A stretch of 24,000 nt of DNA from Arenicella sp. (GTDB lineage Bacteria > Pseudomonadota > Gammaproteobacteria > Arenicellales > Arenicellaceae). The stretch lies in contig JBLHXJ010000001.1 in the NCBI GenBank assembly GCA_047629535.1, positions 41,975 to 65,974 on the forward strand. The letters are read 5' to 3'. The notes below the pieces were generated by a model. The model made no database searches and was not told the origin of the DNA. It saw only the letters and a list, made by a program, of their open reading frames with translations. A program made the position numbers and the translations under genes. Shown piece after piece: positions 3,324 through 16,569 of the stretch. Each line of letters starts with the position of its first letter. Position 1 is the first letter of the stretch.

Positions 3324-4169
3324 ATGAAAACACCGAAAAGACTATTGCCGCTGATTGAAGACGGCTTGGTCGACGAAGTCCTTGGTCAACTGATGAGTGG
3401 CAAAGAAGCCACTGTGTATATGGTGCGCTGTGGCTCCGAGGTTCGTTGTGCCAAAGTGTATAAAGAAGCCGCACAGCGAAGCTTCAAAAAAGCAGTGCAA
3501 TACCAAGAAGGCCGTCGTGTGCGTAATAGCCGCCGCGGCCGGGCAATGGAAAAGGGCTCTAAGTTTGGACGCGATCAACAAGAAGAAATTTGGCAAAGTG
3601 CCGAGGTAGACGCCTTATATAAACTTGCCGCCGCTGGGGTGCGAGTGCCAGAGCCCTACGGTTGCTTCAACGGTGTGCTGTTAATGGAGTTAATTACCGA
3701 TGAAGAAGGCTACGTAGCACCGCGTCTAAACGACGTGGAACTAAGCCCAGAACGAGCGCGGCGTGACCATGCCGTGGTTATGCAAGACGTTATTAAAATG
3801 TTATGCGTTGGCCTAATTCATGGCGACTTATCTGAATTTAATGTGTTGGTTGATGAAGTTGGCCCGGTAATTATCGACCTGCCACAAGCCGTTAACGCGG
3901 CGGGTAATAACAATGCAAAAGCCATGCTCGAACGAGACGTGCGCAACATGACTAACTACTATGGCCAATTCGCACCTGAATTACTCGAGAGCGAACACGC
4001 AAAAGAAATTTGGAAGCTCTATGAAAAAGGCGACCTCAAAGCAGATACTAAGCTCACGGGCATTGTCGAAATAGATACTCGCCCAGCTAATGTCGACTCA
4101 GTAATGCTAGAAATCAAAGCGGCTTTCGAAGAACAGGAAGAGCGTTTGCAGCGATTGAGTGATGATTAG
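3324..4169 (+). CDS. RIO-type serine protein kinase/ATPase
   Basis: 281-aa ORF. It has the RIO ATP-loop motif SGKEATVY, the catalytic loop LIHGDLSEFNVL and the metal-binding IIDLPQAV. An AT-rich 124-bp upstream spacer precedes it. Confidence 0.85.
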   Translation: MKTPKRLLPLIEDGLVDEVLGQLMSGKEATVYMVRCGSEVRCAKVYKEAAQRSFKKAVQYQEGRRVRNSRRGRAMEKGSKFGRDQQEEIWQSAEVDALYKLAAAGVRVPEPYGCFNGVLLMELITDEEGYVAPRLNDVELSPERARRDHAVVMQDVIKMLCVGLIHGDLSEFNVLVDEVGPVIIDLPQAVNAAGNNNAKAMLERDVRNMTNYYGQFAPELLESEHAKEIWKLYEKGDLKADTKLTGIVEIDTRPANVDSVMLEIKAAFEEQEERLQRLSDD

Positions 4170-4183
4170 CTATAAGGCTTTGT

Positions 4184-5698
4184 TTATTTTATTGTTGATC
4201 TCTTTTCATCTGTCACCCCGATTTTGCTTCTAACAATCTCCGACTCTTGCGGGCTGAGCTCGACACTTGCATCGATTATTTTTTCAAAATGTGCTGTATC
4301 CCAAGTGTTTTCGCCACTTAAGCAATAAACATAGAGCTCGGGAAAATCTTCAATTGCCAGTTGGTCTTCGATAAAAAGCGTTTCAATTAATTTTGAATCT
4401 TCGCCTTTGCGTTTACTGTCGTAGGCCATGTTCACTGGCAGAGCGTCTTTACGACATAATACGCTGCCTTCCCATAGTCGAATATTTGAGCAATATACTT
4501 TGTTATTTTCTCGTCGGTGGATTAACCAACGAGGTAAAACTGAGGCGGCCTTATTCTGTTTTAAGGCTGATTCTAATTGCCTTGAAAGACGTGTCGGATG
4601 ATACCAATCATCGTCATCCCACTGGCAAACGAACCGGCCCTTGGCCATTTCGATCGAAAAATTGCGCAAATCACCTAGGCTTTTCTTTGCTTCGATCGGC
4701 ACAACGTGATGCCTTATTTCTTTATTATTAAGGCCCTTCAAGAACTTGTGTGTTGCCGTGTCATCAGATTCGCTAATCACGACCAGCTCTTTATGTGAAT
4801 AGCTTTGTGCCTGAAAACAATCAATAGCGCGCTCTAATAGTGCTACCCGGCCACGGGTCACGCACAAACAGGATATTAGCGGGGCTGGAGAGTTTGACGA
4901 CGACGGCTTGTCGGCCAATCTATATTTTGTTTGCTGGGCGTTAGTGGTGATGTCCTTTTGTGCAATCGAACGATAAAACGATGGTGGCCGTTCGTAATAC
5001 AGGGTTAACAGTGAGAGGTTGCGTATATAGCTCTGGGGATCAATGCCGTTAGGCTCACTTGACTGATGCCACAAATGGTAGGCAATGCCCTTAAGTGTTG
5101 CCATTTTGGTAGCAAAAAAGGCTACCCGCTTGGACATGGCGTCGTCTTCTGCACCCCAGCCTTCAAAGCGTTCATCCATACCGCCCGTCGCGTGGTAAAG
5201 TCTTCGTGTAAGGGCGAACGCTCCTCCGCAGAAGGGGGGGTATTGGCCTATCGACTGTCGGTTTGTCTGTTGCCTTGTTCTATTAATATGCAGCGATTGT
5301 GTCTGCGCTAAAAGCTGTTGTGATTCCTCCTGGCTTAGGTCAACTAAAACGTCATACGGATTGATCGCGTCTACATCGTTGTTCATTTGTTGGCAAATCT
5401 CATCTAACGCAGCTGCGCTAATGAGCATGTCTGAATCGGCGAATACCAGCCGCTCACAGCTTGCATAATTAGCGGCGATGTTCAGCCCCCAGGATTTATT
5501 GAAGCGCCCAGAATTCTCAACAAATACATACTTGATGTTAGCTTGCTGTTGGTTTTTAAATTGAGGGGTAGCGTCTTGCTCGACGAGAATTATCTCTAAG
5601 CTTCGGTCGAGGCTGAGCTGCTGTAAAAGGAAGTGTAAGTTATGTTGCCGACCTTGATCAGATTGGCGATAGGTTATTAGGTAAGAGAAGCGATACAT
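4184..5698 (-). CDS. Two-domain glycosyltransferase: N-terminal beta-1,4-galactosyltransferase-like (GT7/Glyco_transf_7C-like) + C-terminal GT2
   Basis: N-domain (aa 1-~215): ILVEQD, RFNKSWGLNIAANYA, FADSDM (DxD) and FCGGAFALTRRLYHATGGMDERFEGWGAEDDAMSKR, which parallels the beta4GalT FGGVSAL...WGWGGEDDD block. C-domain (aa ~270-504): ISCLCVTRGR, ELVVISESDD, LGDLRNFSIEMAKGRFVCQWDDDDWYHP (classic GT2). No TM segment is evident. Confidence 0.85.
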   Translation of the reverse strand: MYRFSYLITYRQSDQGRQHNLHFLLQQLSLDRSLEIILVEQDATPQFKNQQQANIKYVFVENSGRFNKSWGLNIAANYASCERLVFADSDMLISAAALDEICQQMNNDVDAINPYDVLVDLSQEESQQLLAQTQSLHINRTRQQTNRQSIGQYPPFCGGAFALTRRLYHATGGMDERFEGWGAEDDAMSKRVAFFATKMATLKGIAYHLWHQSSEPNGIDPQSYIRNLSLLTLYYERPPSFYRSIAQKDITTNAQQTKYRLADKPSSSNSPAPLISCLCVTRGRVALLERAIDCFQAQSYSHKELVVISESDDTATHKFLKGLNNKEIRHHVVPIEAKKSLGDLRNFSIEMAKGRFVCQWDDDDWYHPTRLSRQLESALKQNKAASVLPRWLIHRRENNKVYCSNIRLWEGSVLCRKDALPVNMAYDSKRKGEDSKLIETLFIEDQLAIEDFPELYVYCLSGENTWDTAHFEKIIDASVELSPQESEIVRSKIGVTDEKRSTIK

Positions 5699-5855
5699 AT
5701 AAATTCTAATTAACGAGTTGCGTCGGGTTTACTGGCGTAAGACTATGCATAACAATATAACGGATAACCGTGTCCGAGTTCTATTAGAGTAAGATGGTTC
5801 ACAGTTGCGGGCAACCGCGTTCATTTCACTGATAATTTAAATTAAAAAGTACACT

Positions 5856-6512
5856 ATGAAACAAGCGCCATCTCCACAAGTATTGATTGGCACGCCTGCT
5901 TACAATGGCATGCTGCATACAGACTATCTGCATTCGATTCTTGGTTTTGTAAAAAATGACATCCCGCATGCGGTGATGACCATTGGTAATGAGAGTTTGA
6001 TCACTCGGGCCAGGAATACAATTTTGGCCAGTTTCTGGGAGGCCGACACGTTTACCCATCTACTTTTCCTTGATGCTGATGTGTTTCTTGACCATCAGGG
6101 CCTTAGCCAAATGCTTAGCCATAATAAAGATGTTGTTGGCGCGCCAGTTTATCTGAAAGGCAAGAACGCAGACGGCGAACAAACCGCAAATACAGATGCC
6201 AAACTGAATGTTCTGCCGGTGCTTCAATCAGTAACTAGAGTTGGCACCGCAGCACTGCTGCTATCACGTTCGGCGGTTAATTCTTTGGTCGCCCACGCAA
6301 TCAAGCAAGATCGGACCTACAGCATAAATAAGATGCTTCGACATGAAGGGATGGCAACCACCCACTACGATGTGTTCAGAGTGGGTATCTCTAATGACGA
6401 GTATTTATCAGAAGATTTTTGGCTTTGCAAAGAATTGCGAGAGCTGGGTCACGAAATTCACGTCGACACCTCGGTATACACTCGCCATAACGGTATGGTC
6501 TGCTTCGACTAG
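5856..6512 (+). CDS. Small putative GT-A fold glycosyltransferase
   Basis: 218-aa ORF. VLIGTPAYNG opens a Rossmann-like strand. It also has SLITRARNTILASF and HLLFLDADVFL (DxD). I cannot assign a CAZy family by eye. It is divergent from the 4184-5698 gene across a 157-bp spacer. Confidence 0.65.
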   Translation: MKQAPSPQVLIGTPAYNGMLHTDYLHSILGFVKNDIPHAVMTIGNESLITRARNTILASFWEADTFTHLLFLDADVFLDHQGLSQMLSHNKDVVGAPVYLKGKNADGEQTANTDAKLNVLPVLQSVTRVGTAALLLSRSAVNSLVAHAIKQDRTYSINKMLRHEGMATTHYDVFRVGISNDEYLSEDFWLCKELRELGHEIHVDTSVYTRHNGMVCFD

Positions 6513-6634
6513 CGCGGTCTTAATATGAGCGCTAGTCGGTAATCCGTGGACCAGTTTTTATAGCTGTACGCTGGAATAAATTTGCCCTAGGCTGATTCGT
6601 CTAGGGCAACGGCTTCGGCGTAAGAAAAACTGAC

Positions 6635-7486
6635 TTATGCCCAGCTAGACTTCGACAAGCTGAAATTAAACGCAACGTTTGAATTTGCTGGCATAGGCGT
6701 GGTTGGCATAGGCGTTGTTGGCATAGACGTGGTTGGCATAGACGTGGTTGGCATAGACGTAGACGTGGTAGTCGGTACGCCTGTAGTCGTTGGTGCAACA
6801 GTAGTCGTTGGTGCGCCTGTAGTCGTTGGTGCAACAGTAGTCGTTGGTGCCGCAGTGGTGGTTGCCACCGGCGCGCAAACTGGATCAGACGAAGAGACAG
6901 TAAATGCTCCAGTTTCACCTAAGCCACTAATGGAACCCGTAGCCGAAGTTGGCACAGTCGCGCTGTTAAGCGTTGCCGTCACTGTAAAGCCAGAGTGCAA
7001 ACCCACAACGCTTACTGCGGTGCCGTTAACAGAGCCTTTTTGAACATCAACTTCATTATTATTTAGAGTCAATGAAACGGTTGCAACGCCGGCTTCAAGT
7101 GTGAGCAGTACGCAACCGCCATTTAATACTGTAATGGGCGCTTCTTCGGCATATGCCTGACCAATGAAAATATCCAGAATATCGTTAACATCAACGCCGT
7201 CATTTTCAGCCTTGGATATCGATATGCCGCCGCCGCCGCCCATTACTACAACAGCAGCACTGGTTTGTGCATGGCTTGGAAGTATTACCGCGTCAAGTAA
7301 TGGCTTTTTCCATTTATCAGGGACTAAGCTAGTTGAAATAACCGCGCCGCCGCCAATTAAGGTATTTCTTAATACTGTACGTCTAGCATTCTTCTGCTCT
7401 ACACCAACAGCTAGCTCTTGTTGCTCAGCTGATTTAGACGAAGGTGTCGCTTCGCTACTCAATGAATCATTTGTATCTTTAGGCAT
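6635..7486 (-). CDS. Exported protein with twin-arginine-like signal and C-terminal Thr/Pro-rich mucin-like repeat tail
   Basis: The ORF is open to TTG 7549, but the first ATG is at 7486 (MPKDTND...), and using it removes the overlap with the divergent gene. ARRTVLRNTLIGGGAVISTSLV is followed by LPSHA|Q, a possible signal-peptidase site. A central region of about 130 aa is rich in Gly/Val/Thr and carries 2 Cys. The tail is APVATTTAAPTTTVAPTTTGAPTTTVAPTTTGVPTTTSTSMPTTSMPTTSMPTTPMPTTPMP (62 aa, 27 Thr), followed by ANSNVAFNFSLSKSSWA. Confidence 0.75.
   Translation of the reverse strand: MPKDTNDSLSSEATPSSKSAEQQELAVGVEQKNARRTVLRNTLIGGGAVISTSLVPDKWKKPLLDAVILPSHAQTSAAVVVMGGGGGISISKAENDGVDVNDILDIFIGQAYAEEAPITVLNGGCVLLTLEAGVATVSLTLNNNEVDVQKGSVNGTAVSVVGLHSGFTVTATLNSATVPTSATGSISGLGETGAFTVSSSDPVCAPVATTTAAPTTTVAPTTTGAPTTTVAPTTTGVPTTTSTSMPTTSMPTTSMPTTPMPTTPMPANSNVAFNFSLSKSSWA
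6689..6874 (-). repeat. In-frame coding tandem repeats (15-bp x5 and 36-bp x2) encoding the PT-rich tract
   Basis: The 15-bp units are at 6690-6704, 6705-6719, 6720-6734, 6735-6749 and 6750-6764 (ggcata[g/a][g/a]cgt[g/t]gtt; units 3 and 4 are identical). They encode MPTT(S/P). The 36-bp units at 6780-6815 and 6816-6851 match at 35 of 36 positions and encode (APTTTV/APTTTG). Confidence 0.95.
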
Positions 7487-7496
7487 TTTTAATACT

Positions 7497-7524
7497 TTGG
7501 CGGTAGTTAATATGGTCTTATAAT
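7497..7524 (+). promoter_or_regulatory. Candidate sigma70-type promoter for the GT32-FkbM / mega-GT operon
   Basis: TTGGCG (7497-7502), a 16-bp spacer, then a perfect TATAAT (7519-7524), about 95 nt upstream of ATG 7620. This is a pattern match only. Confidence 0.3.
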
Positions 7525-7570
7525 AACCCGAATAATAATTGGCTGCCAAGGGCTATAGGTTAACTTCTAG

Positions 7571-7591
7571 GCTACTCTTTGCTAGAGTAGC
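7571..7591. promoter_or_regulatory. Perfect 8-bp inverted repeat (operator or 5'-UTR hairpin candidate)
   Basis: gctactct (7571-7578), ttgct, agagtagc (7584-7591). It lies in the 133-bp divergent spacer between the PT-protein gene and the GT32-FkbM gene, 29 nt upstream of ATG 7620. Confidence 0.3.
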
Positions 7592-7619
7592 GGGAATATC
7601 CCTCCAGCACCGATTGATT

Positions 7620-9437
7620 ATGATTCCTAAAATTATCCACCAAACTTGGAAAACCGATCAGGTTCCAGAGCAGTGGAAGGCATTTGCCCAGTCATGGAAA
7701 TCGCATCACCCCGATTGGGAGTATCGGCTGTGGAGCAACGCTGATGGCGCTGAGTTTGTCGAACATTTCTATCCTCATTTCGAACAGACATATTGGTCCT
7801 ATCGATACGATATACAGCGCGCTGATGCGATTCGCTACCTAATAATTTATCATTATGGTGGTATCTATGCCGACCTTGATTTTGAATGCCTGCAATCATT
7901 TGAGAGCCTACGTGACAATCACAAGCTGGTTATCGGCTTTGAGCCTAAGGAGCATGCGCAGGCTCAATCATTGCAAGAAGTGTTATGCAATGCGTTATTC
8001 GCGTCAAAGCCTCGGTCAAAATTTTTAAAAGCCGTTATTGATTTTTTAATAGCGGACGACACTCCGACGATTGGACTTGGGGATGTATTGAGAACCTCTG
8101 GCCCAGTGATGTTGCAGAATGTGTATGAGCAATTTAATAAAAGTGACGTAGATGCTCATCCGCCGGTCCGCTTTTACCCGTTTGAAAATAATGCCCCAGA
8201 ATTAACCCAGCTAGCCAAAAATTCGGATGAAAGTGAACGCATAAGGCAAAAACTGATAGGTTTGGGTTGTTTTGCGGTGCACCACTGGGCAAATTCATGG
8301 ACCAAAGATTTGGCCGGTGAACTGATGAATCCGAGCGCCGATTCAGTTGAGGGGTTTGATTTTTATCCGATGTATGATTCACCTGGGATGGATTTATTTA
8401 ACGGTGGTAGAGAGGTCGCAGCACTTGCAGAACGATGCAGAGCTGATTCTCAGGTAGTAGCGTTCAATACCGATGGCTTTGCAAAGCACACTATCGCCTC
8501 AATATCTGATTTGAGCGTAATGTTAAACGCGAATCAAAATGAAGGGATATATATAAAAAGACCCATCGCTAACGCTAAAGAGGTTTTAGAGCAGCACGAG
8601 AATATGCAACTGGTCTATATTGCCGCTGCTGGCCCTCGGCCATTTAGTCTGTTTGTCGATCAAACCAACGATCTAGTAATTGCTCAGTTTATTGAGAGTA
8701 ACCGCATTTGGGAGCCGCTTGAAACCGCCTTAGTCAGCAAGTTAGTATCCCCAGGCGAAAACGTAATCGACATAGGAGCCAACATTGGCTATTTCACGGT
8801 ACTTTTTTCGCAACTAGTGGGCGAACAAGGCAAAGTGCTGGCGTTCGAACCGGAAGCAAAAAATTACTCTTTATTAAAGGCCAATATATTAATTAATCGC
8901 TTAGATAATGTGGTTATTGAAAATCAAGCGCTGTCCAATACTCAGGGAGTCGCTGATCTATACTTATCTAGTTACAATAAAGGTGATCATCGACTTGGCT
9001 ACACCGCCGGCCGAGAGAAGCAACAAATTAGCAGTATTGAGCTTGACCAATACCTGTCAGGCAACGCCCTGCCGATTCATTTTATTAAATCCGATACCCA
9101 AGGTCATGAGCTTAAAGTGCTGCAGGGTATGACCAAGTTAATTGAGCGAAATAGTGCATACTTATGCTGCTTGCTGGAATTCTCTCCAGGGTTATTGATC
9201 ACTGCAGAACCTAGAGGCGTTGAAGATTTTATCGATTTCTTTGACTTATTCGAGACCGAAATATATTTGATTCAGGAGGTGGCTCGGAACGCCGAATTAG
9301 TATTAATGGATAGCGCCGCATTGCGGCAACTGGCGCGCATAATGTTGCAGCACGAAGCGCAAGACCATTCCGTCAATACTTTAATTTTTTTTAGCACTAA
9401 CGCTCGAATCAAGTATTTCGCTAAAATGGGTTGGTGA
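7620..9437 (+). CDS. Fusion protein: GT32-type glycosyltransferase (Gly_transf_sug, DXD) - unassigned ~70-aa module - FkbM-family methyltransferase
   Basis: The ORF-track start at 7539 is a TTG. ATG 7620 gives MIPKIIHQTWKT, the canonical GT32 N-terminus. RADAIRYLIIYHYGGIYADLDFECL carries the DXD. The FkbM region (nt ~8616-9398) has VIDIGANIGYFTV, LAFEPEAKNYSLLKANI and IHFIKSDTQGHELKVLQGM. Its stop overlaps the next gene. Confidence 0.85.
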   Translation: MIPKIIHQTWKTDQVPEQWKAFAQSWKSHHPDWEYRLWSNADGAEFVEHFYPHFEQTYWSYRYDIQRADAIRYLIIYHYGGIYADLDFECLQSFESLRDNHKLVIGFEPKEHAQAQSLQEVLCNALFASKPRSKFLKAVIDFLIADDTPTIGLGDVLRTSGPVMLQNVYEQFNKSDVDAHPPVRFYPFENNAPELTQLAKNSDESERIRQKLIGLGCFAVHHWANSWTKDLAGELMNPSADSVEGFDFYPMYDSPGMDLFNGGREVAALAERCRADSQVVAFNTDGFAKHTIASISDLSVMLNANQNEGIYIKRPIANAKEVLEQHENMQLVYIAAAGPRPFSLFVDQTNDLVIAQFIESNRIWEPLETALVSKLVSPGENVIDIGANIGYFTVLFSQLVGEQGKVLAFEPEAKNYSLLKANILINRLDNVVIENQALSNTQGVADLYLSSYNKGDHRLGYTAGREKQQISSIELDQYLSGNALPIHFIKSDTQGHELKVLQGMTKLIERNSAYLCCLLEFSPGLLITAEPRGVEDFIDFFDLFETEIYLIQEVARNAELVLMDSAALRQLARIMLQHEAQDHSVNTLIFFSTNARIKYFAKMGW

Positions 9438-12400
9438 GTATCAACGGTATAAAATACTATTCCATGCTTGAGTCATCCGGCTATGGACTGTCTGCGATTA
9501 GCTATTTGAATGCGTTGCTTGACCTCGAGTGCCCAATACATTGGATTCCACTGGTCTTGGGCGAGCGAGGTTACCAACCATGGTATCAATCGACATCGGC
9601 CGAGCAGCAAGTTCGCCAATTGCTGATCGAGTGTCTGACTGACGACAGTCAAATAGACAGACTGATGGCGTGTCTAGAGCCGATTAACAACTATCAATGC
9701 ATATTCATGCATACCGTGCCGGAGTATTGGCCTCATCTTAAAGAGCCCAATAAATATCAAATCGGCTATAGCGTGTGGGAGACTAGTTGCCTACCTAAGC
9801 ATTTTCCTGAGCTCATCAATCAGCTTGACCGAGTGCTAGTACCCAGCACATTTAATCGACCGATATACGAGCGTTCGGGGGTTGAGATTCCGATAGACGT
9901 GGTGCCGCATATTCTAAATAAGCCCGCGCCTGCGGCTAAGGCGACCGTCGATACTATGCGTAGCTTGATTGAGGTTGCGCCAGAAAACTACCTCTTCTAT
10001 TGCATCAATGAATGGACCGCTCGCAAGGCGCTATGGGTTTTGGTTGACGCCTATCTAAGCAGCTTTAGTGCTGATGACTCGGTGTCTTTAGTACTAAAAA
10101 CATCGGCTCGAGGCCCGCGATCGGAAACCGATGCAGACCAGTACGACACACAACTATTGGTGGCACAAATAGCTGCTGGCTATACTGCACCTGCGCATAT
10201 TAAAGTGATTAATCATAAAATCACTAACCCTGAGATCACCGCATTACACCAACTTGGCGATTGCTTTGTCTCTACCAGTCGTAGCGAAGGCTGGGGCTTG
10301 GGTATGTTTGAAGCTGCGGGAATGGGTAACCCGGTGATTGCTACCGGCTGGGGCGGGCATCTCGATTTTCTTACAGAGCAGTCGAGCTATCTGTCATCCT
10401 ATCAATTGACTCAAGTGGTGGATACTCAAGCTGAATCGTCCTACAGTAGCGAACAACAGTGGGCTCAAGTTGATCAAACAAGTATCTCTAAGCATTTAAA
10501 AACGGTGTTCGCCAATCCTCAATTAGCGCAGCAAAACGCTCAAGATTTGGCTCTAGAGCTAAATGAAAAGTATAATTCAGCACAGCTTGGTATACAGCTC
10601 TATAAAGCAATTATGGCAACTAACATCCCCAAGATTTTTCATTTTATATTCGGTTTGAAAGAACAAACTGAGCCGTTTCATCTGGCCTACTATCTTTGTT
10701 TAAAATCCTGCCTCGAGGTTAACAAGCCGAGCGCGCTACATTTTTACTATCATTACCAACCTTATGGTGAATACTGGGAGTTGATAAAACCTCACCTGAC
10801 GCTAATCGAAGTAGAGTTGGAATCTTTTGTAAAACACAATAACGCCTACCAAGATCACCAAGAAGGTCAGTTTATCAAGGCCGCTAAACTCGATTATGCG
10901 CATCAAGCGGATTTTATCCGCTTAAAAAAATTGATAGAATACGGTGGTGTTTATGCTGACATGGACACCCTATTTGTAAACCCAATACCGGATGATCTGT
11001 ATCAGCATCCGTTTGTGATAGGCCGTGAACAGAGTGTTATCGACCCCGTAAGCAAGAAAAAAAATCCGTCATTGTGCAACGCGCTGCTGATGTCCGAACC
11101 CAATTCAGAGTTCGCGCGCCAATGGCTAAAGGCTAGTTATCAATCGTTTGACGGAACCTGGAGTTCGCACTCGTGCCAGTTAGCGGCGACACTTGCAAGC
11201 GAGTTGCCCGATACGGTGCACATTGCGCCGCAACGTTTCTTCTTCAAGCACATGTGGACAAAGCCGGGTATTAGCTCGTTATTTGAAGAGCTTGATGATG
11301 ACTTCGAGCAAGTCTATAGCATGCATATGTGGAACCATCTGTGGTGGGACCAATCGAGAGTAGACTTTTCGAGTTTTCATCAAGGCTTGATCACCGAACA
11401 AAATATTATGACGGTAGATACCACTTATAATGTTATCGCCAGACAATTTTTACCAACAGCAAGTAAGGCAACAACTAGCCCAATTAACAAAGAGCCCTCT
11501 GAAAAATTGAAAAATTCATCCTCATCAATCTTGATTCCAGTAATAGAAGTTAGTTGGGAACTTTCTCAAGAGCAAGGTTCCAGCCGCTTTTCCAATACTC
11601 AAACGGGCCATTCCTTCGCCACTAACGAAACTACAAATTTAATTCTTCAACAGTGCGATGGAATTAAAAATGTTGACGCTATCATTGATTCGCTGAGTGA
11701 GCGCTTTGGTGATGATTTCGACAGTATAGGGCATGATGTTAAAACTACTTTGCGCGAACTAGCTTTGAGTGGCGCGATTCGATTTAAACAAATCACACCG
11801 GCTCTACCAGTTGTTCAGCCCACGCCGCCCGAGGCACCCTCAAAGCAGTACAAGTTGTGTATTGGCATGGCCACCTACGATGACTATGACGGTGTCTACT
11901 TTTCGGTGCAGGCGATGCGAATGTATCACCCAGAAATATTGGAGCATGTAGAGTTTTTAGTGCTCGACAACAACCCCACAGGCGTTTGCGCCGACGCGCT
12001 AAAAAACCTTGGTGATTGGATCCCAAACTATCGTTATATTGAAGGCGATAATTTCCAAGGAACCTGGTCTCGATTTTCCTTGATTAACCAAACTAACGCT
12101 CCGTATATTTTGTGTATGGATTCGCACGTGATGGTTTTACCCGGAGCGATTAAGCAACTGTTGGATTATATCGACATTCACCCCGACACACCCGACATGC
12201 TGCAAGGGCCACTAGTGGCCGATGATTTGTTTTCCTTGTCATCGCATTTTACGCCCGGCTGGGGTAGTGGCATGTATGGCAAATGGGCAACAGATTCAAG
12301 AGCGGAAGATCTCGACAACCCTGGGTTTGATATCCCAATGCAAGGGCTTGGTTTGTTTGCCTTTCGCAAAGATAGCTGGCCGCAAGTAAACTCACGCTTT

Positions 12401-13309
12401 AAAGGGTTTGGCGGCGAAGAGGGCTATGTGCATGAGAAAGTTCGGCGTGCCGGTGGGCGAACATTATGTCTACCATTTTTACGCTGGGTACACCGCTTTA
12501 ACCGACCGATGGGCACGCGCTATGCGCTCAGTTGGCATGATCGCATTCGCAACTATATGGTCGCGCATGACGAACTGGATGTTGATAATAGCGAGATGAT
12601 TGAACACTTCAATTCGTTTATAGGCGAGGCCGAAACCGCAACAATAGTTGCCGATGTTGAAGCTGAAATTAACAATCCATTCTACTTTTTTGATGCTATT
12701 TACTGTATCAACTTAGATCGACAAGAAGAACGATGGAAGACCGCACAGGCACAATTCGATAAGCTTGGCATTACCCATCGAGTTCAGCGTTTTTCCGCTA
12801 TTGAAACACCCGAAAATCACCATATAGGGTGTGCCTTGTCACACCGAGCAATTATTCAAATGGCATCGGTCAATAAGCACAAAAATGTATTGGTGTTAGA
12901 AGATGATGTGATCTTCGATGCGGCCACACTGACTGATCTTGCAAATAGCCTGGATGAGGCAAAAGCCGAAAGCTGGGATGTATTATATTTAGGTGGACAT
13001 TGTTGGGACAAGCGATATCCACTTGTAAGTGGGCGTGAACATTTAAGAGAACTGGTCAGTGGCGAAGTTGGGCCAACCACAACCCATGCGATTGTCTATG
13101 GCGATTCCAGTTATTCGCAACTGCTTAATGATCTTCCCGAGACTATCGCGCAGATGACAAGCGCCATTGATCAAGGGTGGTTAGCGATTGATCAGTATTT
13201 GGCCGTTGAGACAACGCTAAGAAAGCTGATAACCGAACCTAGAGTGGCAAGTCAGCCACCGCTTCTTATCCAAGAAGAAGATAGCTTTACACCGATACTT
13301 TCGGCATAG
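9431..13309 (+). CDS. 1292-aa multi-domain glycosyltransferase: GT4 - GT32 - PqqD-like - DxH GT-A (GT2/GT27-like) - GT25
   Basis: The start is TTG 9431 or GTG 9434, overlapping the upstream TGA (9435-9437). ATG 9464 would delete the first beta-strand IKYYS. GT4 (aa 1-~392): EX7E in SRSEGWGLGMFEAAGMGNPVIATGWGG (nt 10286-10312). GT32 (aa ~397-672): IPKIFHFIFG and ADFIRLKKLIEYGGVYADMDTLF. PqqD-like: aa ~704-786. GT-A (aa ~806-1045): FLVLDNNP, CMDSHV (nt 12119-12127), GFGGEEGY and WVHRF. GT25 (aa ~1085-1280): AIYCINLDRQEERW, GCALSHRA and VLVLEDDVIF. No TM segment is evident. Confidence 0.85.
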   Translation: MVSINGIKYYSMLESSGYGLSAISYLNALLDLECPIHWIPLVLGERGYQPWYQSTSAEQQVRQLLIECLTDDSQIDRLMACLEPINNYQCIFMHTVPEYWPHLKEPNKYQIGYSVWETSCLPKHFPELINQLDRVLVPSTFNRPIYERSGVEIPIDVVPHILNKPAPAAKATVDTMRSLIEVAPENYLFYCINEWTARKALWVLVDAYLSSFSADDSVSLVLKTSARGPRSETDADQYDTQLLVAQIAAGYTAPAHIKVINHKITNPEITALHQLGDCFVSTSRSEGWGLGMFEAAGMGNPVIATGWGGHLDFLTEQSSYLSSYQLTQVVDTQAESSYSSEQQWAQVDQTSISKHLKTVFANPQLAQQNAQDLALELNEKYNSAQLGIQLYKAIMATNIPKIFHFIFGLKEQTEPFHLAYYLCLKSCLEVNKPSALHFYYHYQPYGEYWELIKPHLTLIEVELESFVKHNNAYQDHQEGQFIKAAKLDYAHQADFIRLKKLIEYGGVYADMDTLFVNPIPDDLYQHPFVIGREQSVIDPVSKKKNPSLCNALLMSEPNSEFARQWLKASYQSFDGTWSSHSCQLAATLASELPDTVHIAPQRFFFKHMWTKPGISSLFEELDDDFEQVYSMHMWNHLWWDQSRVDFSSFHQGLITEQNIMTVDTTYNVIARQFLPTASKATTSPINKEPSEKLKNSSSSILIPVIEVSWELSQEQGSSRFSNTQTGHSFATNETTNLILQQCDGIKNVDAIIDSLSERFGDDFDSIGHDVKTTLRELALSGAIRFKQITPALPVVQPTPPEAPSKQYKLCIGMATYDDYDGVYFSVQAMRMYHPEILEHVEFLVLDNNPTGVCADALKNLGDWIPNYRYIEGDNFQGTWSRFSLINQTNAPYILCMDSHVMVLPGAIKQLLDYIDIHPDTPDMLQGPLVADDLFSLSSHFTPGWGSGMYGKWATDSRAEDLDNPGFDIPMQGLGLFAFRKDSWPQVNSRFKGFGGEEGYVHEKVRRAGGRTLCLPFLRWVHRFNRPMGTRYALSWHDRIRNYMVAHDELDVDNSEMIEHFNSFIGEAETATIVADVEAEINNPFYFFDAIYCINLDRQEERWKTAQAQFDKLGITHRVQRFSAIETPENHHIGCALSHRAIIQMASVNKHKNVLVLEDDVIFDAATLTDLANSLDEAKAESWDVLYLGGHCWDKRYPLVSGREHLRELVSGEVGPTTTHAIVYGDSSYSQLLNDLPETIAQMTSAIDQGWLAIDQYLAVETTLRKLITEPRVASQPPLLIQEEDSFTPILSA
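11540..11788 (+). other. PqqD-like (RiPP-recognition-element-like) domain embedded in the mega-glycosyltransferase
   Basis: EVSWELSQEQGSSRFSNTQTGHSFATNETTNLILQQCDGIKNVDAIIDSLSERFGDDFDSIGHDVKTTLRELALSGAIRF follows the PqqD-family pattern (x-LNetaaxIwxlxDGxxtvxeIvxxLxxxy...DVxxfLxxLxxxGli). It is flanked by Ser/Thr/Pro-rich linkers. Confidence 0.6.
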
Positions 13310-14710: not shown

Positions 14711-15295
14711 CTATCGGCTCTGTTGTTGTTCTAGGTAATCTAAAATGGCTATGTCATCGACATACAATTCGGCGATTACGGCATAACCGTTTTTTATTCT
14801 AACGTCAGCGTAAAACTCCACATTTTGGCCTGCGACTCGAGTCCACAACAATGACTCTATCTTTGGTGCTTTCGATTCCTCGGCATAATAGCGGTCAAAG
14901 GGTAGGGTGATGTTGTATTTTTCGTTATAGCTGTAGCTACTTTTTATTCTTACATAATTTTGATGTTTTGGTGGTTCTTTCTGAATATCTCGAACCCGCG
15001 CGATACTATCAGAATCTCTATCGATGATTGCATAGGCCGCTGTTTTTCTGGGTAGCTCAGTTATTATCACTGGGTTTTCTAAATCCTTGATCGCGCCACT
15101 TGAGATAGGAAAGTCGAGAACAACATAGCGGCCTTTAAAAGGGTCTGCGGGGTCTCGTGGCTCGACTTTGAACAGATAACGCTCACCAGTCTGTAAAATA
15201 TCTTCATAGCGGCTTGCCATGCTGGTCGGTATAAACAGCTGCGCGGCGATGGTTAATAGTGCAACCGACAAAATCAATAATCTATTTCGACTCAT
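14711..15295 (-). CDS. GDYXXLXY-domain protein (membrane-anchored/secreted)
   Basis: N-terminal anchor MSRNRLLILSVALLTIAAQLF. The motifs FKVEPRDPADPFKGRYVVLDF and FDRYYAEE match the GDYXXLXY family pattern. The ATG overlaps the upstream gene's stop by 4 nt (15292-15295). Confidence 0.7.
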   Translation of the reverse strand: MSRNRLLILSVALLTIAAQLFIPTSMASRYEDILQTGERYLFKVEPRDPADPFKGRYVVLDFPISSGAIKDLENPVIITELPRKTAAYAIIDRDSDSIARVRDIQKEPPKHQNYVRIKSSYSYNEKYNITLPFDRYYAEESKAPKIESLLWTRVAGQNVEFYADVRIKNGYAVIAELYVDDIAILDYLEQQQSR

Positions 15296-16569
15296 ATTTT
15301 ACCCCTTTGATTTTGCCATAAATTAGATCCAATAAACGCACAGCCGATAATAATAAACGCGATTCCTTTAACGATAAAACTAAAGTCTTGATCAAAGAAT
15401 CTCAGCAGGATCAAGGTCATGATCAGTACAAGGCCAAAATTCATTTGACTGCTACTATTGTCATCAATACCACGCCATAAGTACCAAACGCCCAACGATA
15501 GAACAAGGCTATTGGCAAGCAGAGAAAATAGATCGGGTCGCCAACTTGATACTGGTATAAAAGCCACAGCCAATGAGAATAATAGGGCGCTGCCTAAGGG
15601 TAATAGGTCCGTTCGTTTAGAGCGCAAAGCCCACGCTAAGCCGATAACAGCAAAAACAAGCAGCAGTAACTCAGGCGAGAGTAGTCGCTCTAAGCTAAAA
15701 CCCGAGTCAGAGCTAGCTGATTGCCATATGTCGGTGAAGGTATAAACTAACAGGTTGAGGGCGATGCCCGCCGCGCCTAAATTACTAAACGGCCGATTCC
15801 AAAATCCATGTTTTGGTTCAGTAAAACTACCTAAGAAATAAATTGAAGCAGCGCCTCCCATAAATACTAATACGGCAATACTCAGGCTATCCGTCGCCGC
15901 GATAGGACTGAGCAGAATCGAAACTGAAAAGCCGAGCGCAAATAGCCAACCGATCAAGCGGTTTTTTTGGTCGCGTCCATAAGGCTCAAGTAGAAAATGA
16001 AATGGTAACAAGGCCGCCGCGCAAAGCCAATAGTCACCTTGATGCAAGGCGGCCATCCAAGCAGCCAATAGCATCGCCAGTATCGCTGTCAGCTTGGCCC
16101 TAAGCAAATACACAAATGGCAACACCAACAGAAACCATAGCGTTTGAAACGACTGAAAATCATTGCTGATATGATAAGTTTGCCCGACCAGAGCAATAGA
16201 TGCTGGCACCGCACAAAACATCAATGCCGCCGTCGCTTCACGCCACGCTGCACCGCGTGGTTTTGGGAACAAAGCCAGCAAAGCCAAAATTTGAGAGATA
16301 ATTAAAGGTGACAAGGCTAACAGCATCCGGCTAACCCGACTCATTTGATCCCAATTATGGGCAAAGATCATAATGATGCCGCCGCCGATCAAGAGCCCGC
16401 CCACAGCCGCCAAAATGATGGTCATTTTTGACAAACCTTGAGGCTCATCGGCTAGCGTATCCAAGTTAAAATATTCGCCTAAACTGCTAGCGGCACGCTG
16501 GTTTAATACACCCTTAGAGAGTAGCTCTGGCAATTCACTGGCAAGCCACTGGCGATGTCCCTGACTCAT
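15292..16569 (-). CDS. Polytopic membrane protein (DUF2157/DUF4401-like), operonic with the GDYXXLXY gene
   Basis: 425 aa. A soluble N-terminal region of about 45 aa is followed by about 11-12 hydrophobic helices. AGGAG lies 7 nt upstream of ATG 16569. The 4-nt overlap with the downstream gene indicates co-translation. Confidence 0.7.
   Translation of the reverse strand: MSQGHRQWLASELPELLSKGVLNQRAASSLGEYFNLDTLADEPQGLSKMTIILAAVGGLLIGGGIIMIFAHNWDQMSRVSRMLLALSPLIISQILALLALFPKPRGAAWREATAALMFCAVPASIALVGQTYHISNDFQSFQTLWFLLVLPFVYLLRAKLTAILAMLLAAWMAALHQGDYWLCAAALLPFHFLLEPYGRDQKNRLIGWLFALGFSVSILLSPIAATDSLSIAVLVFMGGAASIYFLGSFTEPKHGFWNRPFSNLGAAGIALNLLVYTFTDIWQSASSDSGFSLERLLSPELLLLVFAVIGLAWALRSKRTDLLPLGSALLFSLAVAFIPVSSWRPDLFSLLANSLVLSLGVWYLWRGIDDNSSSQMNFGLVLIMTLILLRFFDQDFSFIVKGIAFIIIGCAFIGSNLWQNQRGKI

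Follow-up and report, generated by a model that had tools for sequence, protein, structure and literature searches.

The 24,000-nucleotide stretch of Arenicella sp. DNA analyzed here (contig JBLHXJ010000001.1 of assembly GCA_047629535.1, positions 41,975 to 65,974; hereafter the window) holds a compact run of glycosyltransferase (GT) genes around a single gene for a threonine-rich protein, and the question that it raises is what these GTs glycosylate. A sequence-only reading of the DNA had proposed that the region from 4184 to 13309 is a dedicated system that builds an O-glycan directly on the Pro/Thr-rich tail of that protein. We consider it probable that the locus is a self-contained protein O-glycosylation cassette working by the whole mechanism set out below, and we hold with moderate confidence the core claim that the cassette GTs modify the Thr-rich protein. 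This reading draws on gene content, conserved linkage, and domain fusions, which are observed, and on a fold similarity that comes from a structural model. Open reading frames (ORFs) together with Pfam and NCBIfam scans were the basis for the genes and domains of the region, and the neighboring gene content was taken from the called genes of the identical contig, which matches the window at 100% protein identity and belongs to an Arenicella sp. metagenome-assembled genome (MAG) from a Joint Genome Institute metagenome.

The region contains five genes, four of which encode GT-bearing proteins (504, 218, 605, and 1292 aa) placed around the gene for the 283-aa Thr-rich protein, and both genes and coordinates agree with those first proposed. 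By Pfam, the four proteins together carry eight GT domains (one weakly supported), one FkbM methyltransferase, and one PqqD domain, in keeping with the earlier count of about eight GT domains and one FkbM. Throughout the four, every 19-residue stretch stays at or below a Kyte-Doolittle value of 1.6, so there is no obvious transmembrane helix in them, as the sequence-only reading had said. It had also reported the absence of exporter, priming, and nucleotide-sugar genes, and the genes called on the identical contig indeed include no Wzx/Wzy, ABC or OPX exporter, priming transferase, or nucleotide-sugar gene.

The first of the four GT proteins is a soluble two-domain enzyme of 504 aa (4184 to 5698, minus strand) with two GT-A domains. 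Its N-terminal domain (aa ~1 to 250) is GT7C/GT2-like, matching the Pfam models Glyco_tranf_2_2 (2e-15) and Glyco_transf_7C (2e-11), and its C-terminal domain (aa ~270 to 504) matches GT2 (2e-20). The nearest solved relatives in a PDB sequence search were chondroitin polymerase K4CP, B4GalT7/B4GalT1, and heparosan synthase, and the protein was found in every related cassette. The minimal GT-A-like protein of 218 aa (5856 to 6512, plus strand) carries a DAD motif within LLFLDADVF and gave weak GT-A signals alone: GT21 scored 23 bits against a cutoff of 21.7, Anp1 fell under its cutoff, and PDB profile matches to STIV A197 and Mnn9 were weak. It is 68 to 89% identical in all related cassettes, the mini-substrate locus L010 included. 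The 605-aa protein (7620 to 9437, plus strand), the product of an accessory gene, joins a GT32 domain (core at aa ~16 to 101; Gly_transf_sug, 4e-22) to an FkbM methyltransferase (aa ~384 to 511; Pfam 7e-17, NCBIfam TIGR01444 4.5e-29). The fourth, the 1292-aa protein (9431 to 13309, plus strand), has the Pfam architecture GT4-GT32-PqqD-GT2-GT25 and will be called the mega-GT.

The 283-aa protein (6635 to 7486, minus strand), defined by its ORF and by orthologue alignment, matched no Pfam or NCBIfam family. Alignment with its orthologues, together with the homologues P0072 to P0078, divides it into a leader, a two-Cys domain of about 130 aa, a Thr/Pro tract, and a conserved tail. The leader (aa 35 to 73, RRTVLRNTLIGGGAVISTSLVPDKWKKPLLDAVILPSHA; 7268 to 7384, minus strand), with predicted cleavage before QTS, is nearly invariant in the orthologues, whose consensus reads RRxVLxNTLIGGGAVIST...WKKPLLDSVILPSHA/QTS (here and below a slash marks the cleavage site). 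Two sub-segments can be told apart within it, the RR/h-region and WKKPLLDAVILPSHA. The Thr/Pro tract (aa 205 to 266; 6689 to 6874, minus strand), the proposed O-glycan acceptor, is 62 aa long and 44% Thr with spaced Pro, just as had been described, and its Pro content is 21%. It consists of four AP/VPTTT-type units (APTTTV, APTTTG, APTTTV, APTTTG) followed by five MPTT(S/P) units. In the DNA (6689 to 6850) these correspond to two tandem arrays with an 88 to 97% match between copies, one of 18/36 bp repeated 3.8 times that encodes the AP/VPTTT-type units and one of 15 bp repeated 4.8 times that encodes the MPTT(S/P) units. The length and sequence of the tract differ between orthologues while its Thr-richness is kept, and the arrays are consistent with recent slippage and with these length differences.

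The C-terminal tail (ANSNVAFNFSLSKSSWA; 6638 to 6688, minus strand) is likewise conserved, with the consensus PNxNxxFNFSLSKSxW (PN.N..F.F[ST]..W across P0072 to P0082). Every Arenicella-type and mini substrate keeps it, and it was seen solely after Thr tracts; because it is not hydrophobic, it does not read as a known CTERM sorting signal. An N-glycosylation sequon at its NFS was considered and rejected, since two orthologues read FTFS. The mini-substrates P0077 (123 aa) and P0078 (115 aa) are made up of leader, Thr-rich stretch, and tail alone, with no globular domain, and P0077 is still flanked by GT4, a 216-aa GT, and the two-domain GT. What accompanies the GTs throughout is thus a leader, a Thr tract, and a tail, whereas the exact length and sequence of the tract, and even the entire globular domain, are dispensable. 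Another motif, LLD.L[VI]P.AHA, lies at aa 103 to 114 of the window protein (DILDIFIGQAYA; 7144 to 7180, minus strand) and recurs 25 to 45 residues past the first AHA in many of proteins P0082 to P0227, where it might be a second processing site or the boundary of a pro-region.

The cassette recurs in at least six further contig families, where other genes flank it. Orthologues of the mega-GT in Arenicella-like MAGs are 72 to 78% identical to it, and more distant, differently split versions are 48 to 70% identical. Wherever the contig is long enough, the neighbors of the mega-GT are the two-domain GT, the 218-aa GT, and a Thr-rich homologue, and their relative orientation is unchanged; the P0005 contig stops short of the remaining cassette. 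The genes beyond the cassette are unrelated between contigs (RIO kinase/DUF3429, MATCAP/SnoaL, uronate catabolism, glutaminase/SNF transporter, transposases, or AdoHcyase/MTHFR). Because the cassette recurs with different flanks, the five-gene arrangement is not, as judged from these contigs, a chance neighborhood. The sequence-only reading had asked whether orthologues of the 1292-aa protein consistently lie beside a Pro/Thr- or Ser/Thr-repeat gene, and a Thr-rich homologue always adjoins them while the flanks change. The outcome that it had named as counting against it, orthologous GTs within exporter-containing polysaccharide loci that lack such a gene, was not seen. All of the comparative checks that it had suggested turned out in its favor.

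Some parts of the cassette vary. The GT32-FkbM gene is absent from L004, L005, and L012 and is split in L007, and the GT4 domain is absent from P0007 to P0009. In L007 there are separate genes for PqqD-GT25, PqqD-GT2-GT25, GT4-GT32, and FkbM, together with two tandem substrate paralogues, one with a run of about 20 Thr. Because accessory GT content varies in this way, the glycans may differ between strains.

The mega-GT itself is made up of five domains. A GT4 domain of the GT-B type (9431 to 10615; Pfam GT4-conflict, Glycos_transf_1, and Glyco_trans_1_4) is followed by a GT32 domain (10622 to 11380; Pfam, with a DXD sugar-binding region and Caps_synth-like), which is the best-conserved part of the N-terminal half. 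Next comes a PqqD-like domain (11528 to 11794), that is, a recognition element (RRE) of the type found in pathways for peptides made by the ribosome and modified after translation (RiPPs); it scored 33.3 bits against a cutoff of 23.4 for PF05402 and matched PqqD 3g2b in a PDB profile search (5e-4). The C-terminal part comprises a GT-A domain assigned to GT2 by Pfam (11855 to 12670), which resembles polypeptide N-acetylgalactosaminyltransferases (ppGalNAc-Ts) and has D-S-H at nucleotides 12119 to 12127 plus a distal His, and a COLGALT1-like GT25 domain (12695 to 13300; PF01755, 40.2 bits against a cutoff of 24) with a PDB profile match to procollagen galactosyltransferase 1 (3e-5). The TTG start at 9431 overlaps the stop codon of the GT32-FkbM gene, which suggests translational coupling. 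Residues 5 to 11 are conserved in orthologues, and because this conservation extends upstream of ATG 9464, the alignment favors TTG 9431 as the start; public annotations begin the protein at ATG 9464 (1281 aa).

An AlphaFold2 (AF2) model of residues 691 to 1292, built on a 96-sequence alignment, had a mean predicted local distance difference test score (pLDDT) of 92.7 and a predicted template modeling score of 0.85, and it contains the PqqD/RRE domain followed by two GT-A domains. An earlier model from a 9-sequence alignment (pLDDT 53.7) was discarded. The PqqD domain was modeled with three strands (10 to 15, 19 to 24, and 27 to 32) and three helices (43 to 50, 58 to 69, and 73 to 89) at pLDDT 85 to 96. 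When the model was compared with the PDB by Foldseek, the top match was human COLGALT1 (E 1e-20), with both GT-A domains aligned, followed by GalNAc-T2/T4/T10/T12, PGANT9, and Toxoplasma TgGalNAc-T3 (E 4e-13 to 1e-11); heparosan and chondroitin synthases ranked after these. The ppGalNAc-T matches covered 260 to 320 columns at a root mean square deviation of 4 to 5 Å and 17 to 18% identity. The ppGalNAc-Ts have a D-x-H...H metal site, and it is echoed here by D207-S-H209 and H331, 122 residues downstream, which are invariant in all 96 sequences and would be the Mn2+ ligands. From alignment length and this motif, we infer that the first GT-A domain of the model is the one that aligns with the ppGalNAc-Ts, and because its DxH motif is invariant, the domain looks catalytic.

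A full-length alignment of 13 mega-GT sequences had no stretch conserved across mixed architectures, and consequently the C-terminal half (PqqD-GT2-GT25) was used to scan one genome per species of the Genome Taxonomy Database. This gave 182 relatives, from which 80 loci were kept. Their hosts include Arenicellales, sponge symbionts, Desulfobulbales, Parabeggiatoa, Thiomargarita, Acidobacteriota (Bryobacterales and others), Streptomyces, Kitasatospora, Microthrix, and alphaproteobacteria. Cultured strains that carry such a locus are the Desulfobulbales member Desulfofustis glycolicus DSM 9705 (L075), Desulforhopalus singaporensis DSM 12130 (L060), and Streptomyces olivochromogenes DSM 40451 (L066). 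A substrate-like ORF (leader-bearing, Thr-rich, or with a PqqD-like domain of its own, termed cis-PqqD below) was present in 43 of the 80 loci and in 32 of the 53 that span at least 15 kb. Such ORFs lie a median of 188 bp from the GT gene, compared with 3.6 kb for all ORFs (Mann-Whitney p = 9e-13), and the Thr-rich criterion selects only 31 of 9,875 ORFs.

A hidden Markov model (HMM) of the leader matched ORFs beside the GT in 18 of the 80 loci, and iterating it gained no further loci. Most of these leader ORFs have a Thr-rich or poly-Thr tract either directly past PAHA or past a small domain, and some are in tandem (six precursors of 70 to 175 aa in L091, two in L027, and two in L075). In L091, an alphaproteobacterial MAG, the six leader plus poly-Thr precursors (3892 to 8961), one of them apparently frameshifted, are interleaved with two GT2 genes, each of which is followed by a 113-aa RRE ORF called in antisense. 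In a Burkholderiales locus (L078, 11938 to 12618, minus strand), the Thr-rich protein beside the GT has an N-terminal RR signal and a C-terminal IPTL-CTERM motif (E 5e-4, just under the cutoff), which suggests a surface-anchored glycosylated stalk. Elsewhere the PqqD-GT2-GT25 module is fused to a GT10 fucosyltransferase, a sulfotransferase (PF03567), or S-adenosylmethionine-dependent methyltransferases (P0240, P0258, P0306, P0270, and P0283), and these fusions would imply fucosylated, sulfated, or methylated glycan variants. A protein search returned at least 1,517 clusters at E ≤ 1e-10 (about 50% identity over about 80% of the query), and no functional name among them went beyond "hypothetical," "GR25 family glycosyltransferase," and "PqqD family peptide modification chaperone."

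The position of the PqqD domain in these loci bears on how enzyme and substrate would meet. In Arenicella, sponge symbionts, and Desulfobulbales, the GT is the protein that carries it. In Acidobacteriota and Actinomycetota, Streptomyces included, the Thr-rich neighbors have no leader and carry a PqqD-like domain at their N terminus instead. After it come RRSLLKK, then a hydrophobic segment, an A-x-A site, and a Thr-rich tail, the shortest of 13 aa. Five such cis-PqqD proteins were scanned against PF05402: two reached the cutoff (27 to 31 bits), two fell below it (18 to 23 bits), and the L053 protein did not match. ORF calling with a simple script was unreliable in the high-GC Streptomyces, where only HMM-supported cis-PqqD genes were used. 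Poly-Thr proteins with their own PqqD domain occur in L034 (6366 to 7972), L057 (11633 to 13208), L077, L080, L053/L055/L085, and L066/L068/L074/L081/L083/L092, and some of their genes are triplicated in tandem immediately next to the GT-A-GT25 gene, as in L034 and L057. A PqqD-like ORF, cis or trans, was found in 49 of the 80 loci, and leader genes occurred in 14 of the 29 loci with a trans PqqD and in 4 of the 51 without one (Fisher p = 6e-5). Because PqqD is found on either the GT or the Thr-rich protein, these fusions are domain-fusion evidence that the two interact, a Rosetta-stone link that points to direct recognition of the protein.

The leader is shared far beyond these loci. A leader-only profile of 48 positions retrieved 2,697 clusters (50% identity) from 1.84 billion representatives, all of them small proteins (50 to 315 aa) with the motif at the N terminus and the consensus sRRklLKsiaaGgGAvvagkslPe.WskPvvdsv.LPAHA/QTS. 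No Pfam or NCBIfam model exists for this family. The signal carries a conserved extension, P..W.KP[VI][VI]..[VI].LPAHA/QTS (P0079 to P0227; L095 to L158), and the mature parts are very diverse, being Cys-rich, Gly-rich, or beta-rich. Few of these proteins are rich in Thr: among the 149 best leader matches, only 27 had at least seven Thr in some 15-residue window. We looked for the motif of twin-arginine translocation (Tat) signals, which is S/T-R-R-x-F-L-K with a moderately hydrophobic h-region and an A-x-A site. The window leader reads ARRTVLR ... SHA/QTS with low hydrophobicity (KD19 < 1.6), and family members matched the Tat-signal models TAT_signal PF10518 (10 of 18) and TIGR01409 (12 of 18), the best at E 3e-4; the extra segment of about 20 aa (W.KP..V.LPAHA) is atypical for a Tat signal. 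We also retrieved 64 metagenomic loci through the generic leader motif, and a PqqD or GT2 neighbor was present in three, two of which involve poly-Thr members. The idea that the leader is a sufficient and specific RRE tag was thus rejected: thousands of unrelated small proteins share it, 61 of the 64 loci have no PqqD or GT gene, and a generic leader cannot alone be a specific recognition tag. The reading that fits best is that of an export signal, Tat-like and lineage-wide, which bears an unusual conserved extension and is not a GT-specific tag. This refines the sequence-only reading at two points, since its PqqD-like domain is by these matches an RRE-type element and the N terminus of its substrate a Tat-like signal common to thousands of unrelated small proteins.

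In the mechanism that we favor, the 283-aa product would be made with a Tat-type N-terminal signal, and the PqqD domain would dock the 1292-aa enzyme onto this precursor. The Thr/Pro tract would be glycosylated in the cytoplasm by soluble GTs independent of any lipid carrier: the ppGalNAc-T-like DxH GT-A domain would probably add the first sugar to Thr, the GT25, GT32, GT4, GT7-like, GT2, and 218-aa domains would extend the glycan, and FkbM would methylate it. The finished glycoprotein would be exported by Tat and cleaved after AHA, a route that would fit because Tat carries proteins already matured in the cytoplasm. The PqqD-GT-A(DxH)-GT25 module would be the conserved core, with accessory domains that differ between strains. 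We infer Thr as the acceptor, the order of the enzymes, the target of PqqD, and the export route. As to a biological role, a hydrated surface or matrix coat, or protection against proteases or ice, are guesses. The system is probably a dedicated protein O-glycosylation system that borrows RiPP logic and uses Tat export, and it belongs to a large unstudied family. Only tentatively do we extend this to a widespread undescribed pathway of Pseudomonadota, Desulfobacterota, Acidobacteriota, and Actinomycetota that would make mucin-like poly-Thr glycopeptides or glycoproteins; here an RRE, coupled to a didomain enzyme similar to both ppGalNAc-Ts and COLGALT1, would read the twin-arginine leader in the manner of a Tat proofreading chaperone, glycosylation of the Thr-rich core would be completed in the cytoplasm ahead of Tat export, and release would occur at the A-x-A site, a RiPP-like scheme in which the leader is a general secretion signal.

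Several known systems share parts of this arrangement. Like the GT27 ppGalNAc-Ts, the cassette combines a putative Pro/Thr-rich tandem-repeat acceptor, a GT-A domain with D-x-H and a distal His, and further extending GTs. Those enzymes, however, have a ricin-type lectin domain and a type II membrane anchor and work in the Golgi lumen, whereas neither feature was found here by Pfam or hydropathy and the GT-A domain is fused to PqqD and GT25 in a protein that would be cytoplasmic. The PDB profile search with the mega-GT gave no ppGalNAc-T match, the sequence similarity being too low. COLGALT1/GLT25D1 shares the two GT-A domains, the C-terminal GT25 catalytic domain, and, by our proposal, a repetitive protein acceptor, but its target is collagen hydroxylysine within the lumen of the ER; the cassette has neither a lysyl hydroxylase nor a collagen repeat, and the first GT-A domain keeps its invariant DxH. 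The serine-rich repeat (SRR) adhesins, with GtfA/GtfB and accessory Sec, also place the substrate gene among soluble GTs, with Ser/Thr-rich repeats and variable accessory GTs, and their tract is glycosylated before export, as we propose here. The cassette differs from them in its Tat-like signal, PqqD domain, and Gram-negative host. The GtfA model TIGR02918 reached only 14 bits against a cutoff of 574.6 with no GtfA/GtfB pair, and the window has no SecA2/SecY2/Asp genes or LPXTG anchor.

RRE-dependent RiPP pathways and glycosylated RiPPs (glycocins, lasso peptides, and lanthipeptides) resemble the cassette in having a PqqD/RRE fused to a tailoring enzyme and a leader-bearing precursor alongside, and their short multi-copy precursors resemble those of the relatives described above. 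They differ in that the leader here doubles as a general Tat-like signal and the core is a poly-Thr tract or, in the window, a 200-aa protein. The genes and Pfam matches gave no sign of a glycocin set of the SunS/GccA type (Cys-rich helical-hairpin peptide, double-Gly leader, ABC-C39 transporter, and thiol-disulfide oxidoreductases), and in place of the double-Gly leader of glycocins the leader looks to be of twin-arginine type. No characterized RiPP GT uses an RRE (PMC12710340), and genome mining has noted RRE-GT (PF00535) fusions as unprecedented and uncharacterized (PMC7470986, PMC12710340). Tat proofreading chaperones, that is, redox enzyme maturation proteins of the TorD/DmsD/NapD type, may offer a conceptual parallel only, in which a cytoplasmic factor binds the twin-arginine leader until maturation is done; their fold is unrelated and they serve cofactor insertion, whereas here the maturation step would be glycosylation. 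Machinery of the PglL/PilO or Wzx/Wzy type (undecaprenyl-phosphate priming transferase, flippase, O-oligosaccharyltransferase, and polymerase/exporter) was found neither in the window nor in the related cassettes. In the literature on poly-Thr, PqqD, GT25, mucin-like RiPPs, bacterial GT27-like enzymes, and the LPAHAQTS motif we found no description of such a system. The domain combination, which the sequence-only reading did not know as a described system, is thus without a publication that we could find, but it is no one-off, being an elaborate member of a very large unnamed family.

Other explanations of the locus have to be weighed against protein glycosylation in the cytoplasm. The GTs could build a free or lipid-linked glycan such as exopolysaccharide, lipopolysaccharide (LPS) core, or glycolipid, with the Thr-rich protein as a co-regulated anchor, scaffold, or matrix partner. 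Annotations such as "glycosyltransferase involved in cell wall biosynthesis" and "GR25 family ... LPS biosynthesis" would agree with this, as would the Pfam descriptions of GT25, GT32, GT4, and GT2 as families best known from LPS and capsule work, and 37 of the 80 loci have no recognizable protein partner. We regard it as unlikely, for the cassettes examined have no priming transferase, flippase, polymerase, or exporter, all their GTs are soluble, either the GT or the Thr-rich protein bears a fused, peptide-binding PqqD domain, the closest folds are those of protein O-GTs, and the mini-substrates retain just leader, Thr tract, and tail. The Thr tract could instead be glycosylated after export by a GT-C or PglL-type enzyme encoded elsewhere, the cassette GTs supplying a lipid-linked donor. 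Streptococci are documented to glycosylate disordered Ser/Thr-rich regions outside the cytoplasm (PMC12041528), the substrate bears an export signal, the cis-PqqD variants place the Thr tract past a hydrophobic segment, so that it would face outward, and a Bac_transf gene lies near L150. Yet neither the window nor the related cassettes encode a GT-C enzyme, oligosaccharyltransferase, flippase, or polyprenol-phosphate GT, the PqqD fusions imply that a cytoplasmic GT touches the polypeptide directly, and the Tat-type-looking signal fits modification before export, all of which makes this second route quite improbable.

Closer to our own reading is a genuine RiPP pathway. Its product would be a small, secreted, bioactive Thr-rich glycopeptide freed from the leader, and the 283-aa Arenicella protein would be a derived carrier version. 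The short tandem precursors (six of 70 to 175 aa in L091, two in L027, and three each in L034 and L057) speak for it, together with cores past the A-x-A site of as little as 13 aa, the presence of an RRE, and the flagging of RRE-GT fusions as candidate new RiPP classes (PMC7470986, PMC12710340). There is, however, no dedicated leader protease or peptidase-containing transporter in the window or the related cassettes, which have an A-x-A (AHA) site of signal-peptidase type instead, and the leader serves export in general and is not specific to any class. The window substrate also keeps the conserved 130-aa folded domain and the tail. A leader-bearing gene does adjoin the tailoring enzymes, as RiPP pathways would have it; at 283 aa with a folded domain it is long, and relatives of 70 to 123 aa occur, some of them in tandem. 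We give this pathway little probability as stated; it fits many relatives better than it fits the Arenicella protein, and it refines the cytoplasmic O-glycosylation reading more than it opposes it.

Some observations weigh against cytoplasmic O-glycosylation coupled to Tat export. The window leader alone scored below the thresholds of TAT_signal PF10518 and TIGR01409, and the leader is so generic that about 95% of the sampled leader genes have no GT or PqqD neighbor. In L150, the 8.6 kb around the poly-Thr leader protein hold no GT2 gene, and a Bac_transf priming enzyme is encoded nearby. Loci without a recognizable substrate-like gene, which include several from Bryobacterales, make up nearly half of those kept, and because of them the GT-A-GT25 family may have other acceptors too. 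Foldseek reports the ppGalNAc-T matches without naming the GT-A domain that aligns with them. Nor do we know of a natural case in which Tat exports a chain bearing heavy glycosylation. On balance, the proposal of dedicated O-glycosylation of the Pro/Thr tail has been strengthened by the conserved pairing, by the adjacency across phyla, and by the protein O-GT-like fold, while the glycosylation itself, the sugars, and the methylation remain predictions.

The remaining features of the region concern its expression and its surroundings. Aligned orthologue N termini back the ATG at 7486, so the divergent spacer that separates the substrate gene from the GT32-FkbM/mega-GT operon is 133 bp (7487 to 7619), the length given by the sequence-only reading. 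Two back-to-back sigma-70-like sites, each matching at 10 of 12 positions, lie at 7497 to 7524 (plus strand) and at 7549 to 7520 (minus strand); the minus-strand site has its first hexamer inside the spacer and overlaps the plus-strand one. Because the count of such sites over the whole region is not above shuffle expectation, they are only suggestive of real promoters. A terminator-like hairpin with a 9-bp stem followed by AUUUAUU (6575 to 6609, minus strand) lies 3' of the substrate gene between two convergent genes, and the RNA fold of 6540 to 6640 (minus strand) has an energy of -29.5 kcal/mol (z = -3.6 versus shuffles). A gene for a bacterial RIO1-family kinase (E 6e-41; 3324 to 4169, plus strand) adjoins the cassette in this contig only and is outside the conserved unit, and 3' of the cassette an overlapping gene pair (14711 to 16569, minus strand) encodes a GDYXXLXY-domain protein and a DUF2157 multi-pass membrane protein. 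The other genes of the window encode a cytochrome c peroxidase, GAF-guanylate cyclase, RIO kinase, DUF3429, SnoaL, GDYXXLXY/DUF2157, Na/H exchanger, hydrolase, and HEAT proteins.

If the O-glycosylation reading is true, bacteria would own an independent cytoplasmic counterpart of mucin-type O-glycosylation, with folds that match those of animal mucin and collagen GTs, and RRE-glycosyltransferase fusions would gain their first function. Protein glycosylation would be coupled to Tat export, a coupling of which we know of no description. The finding would also give a role to the at least 1,517 unnamed GT clusters and draw attention to the 2,697-cluster family of unannotated leader-bearing small proteins. 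Soluble, lipid-independent GTs that act on (APTTT)n tags could help make defined mucin-like glycoproteins in E. coli, and since cultured carriers of the cassette family exist, the idea is directly testable.

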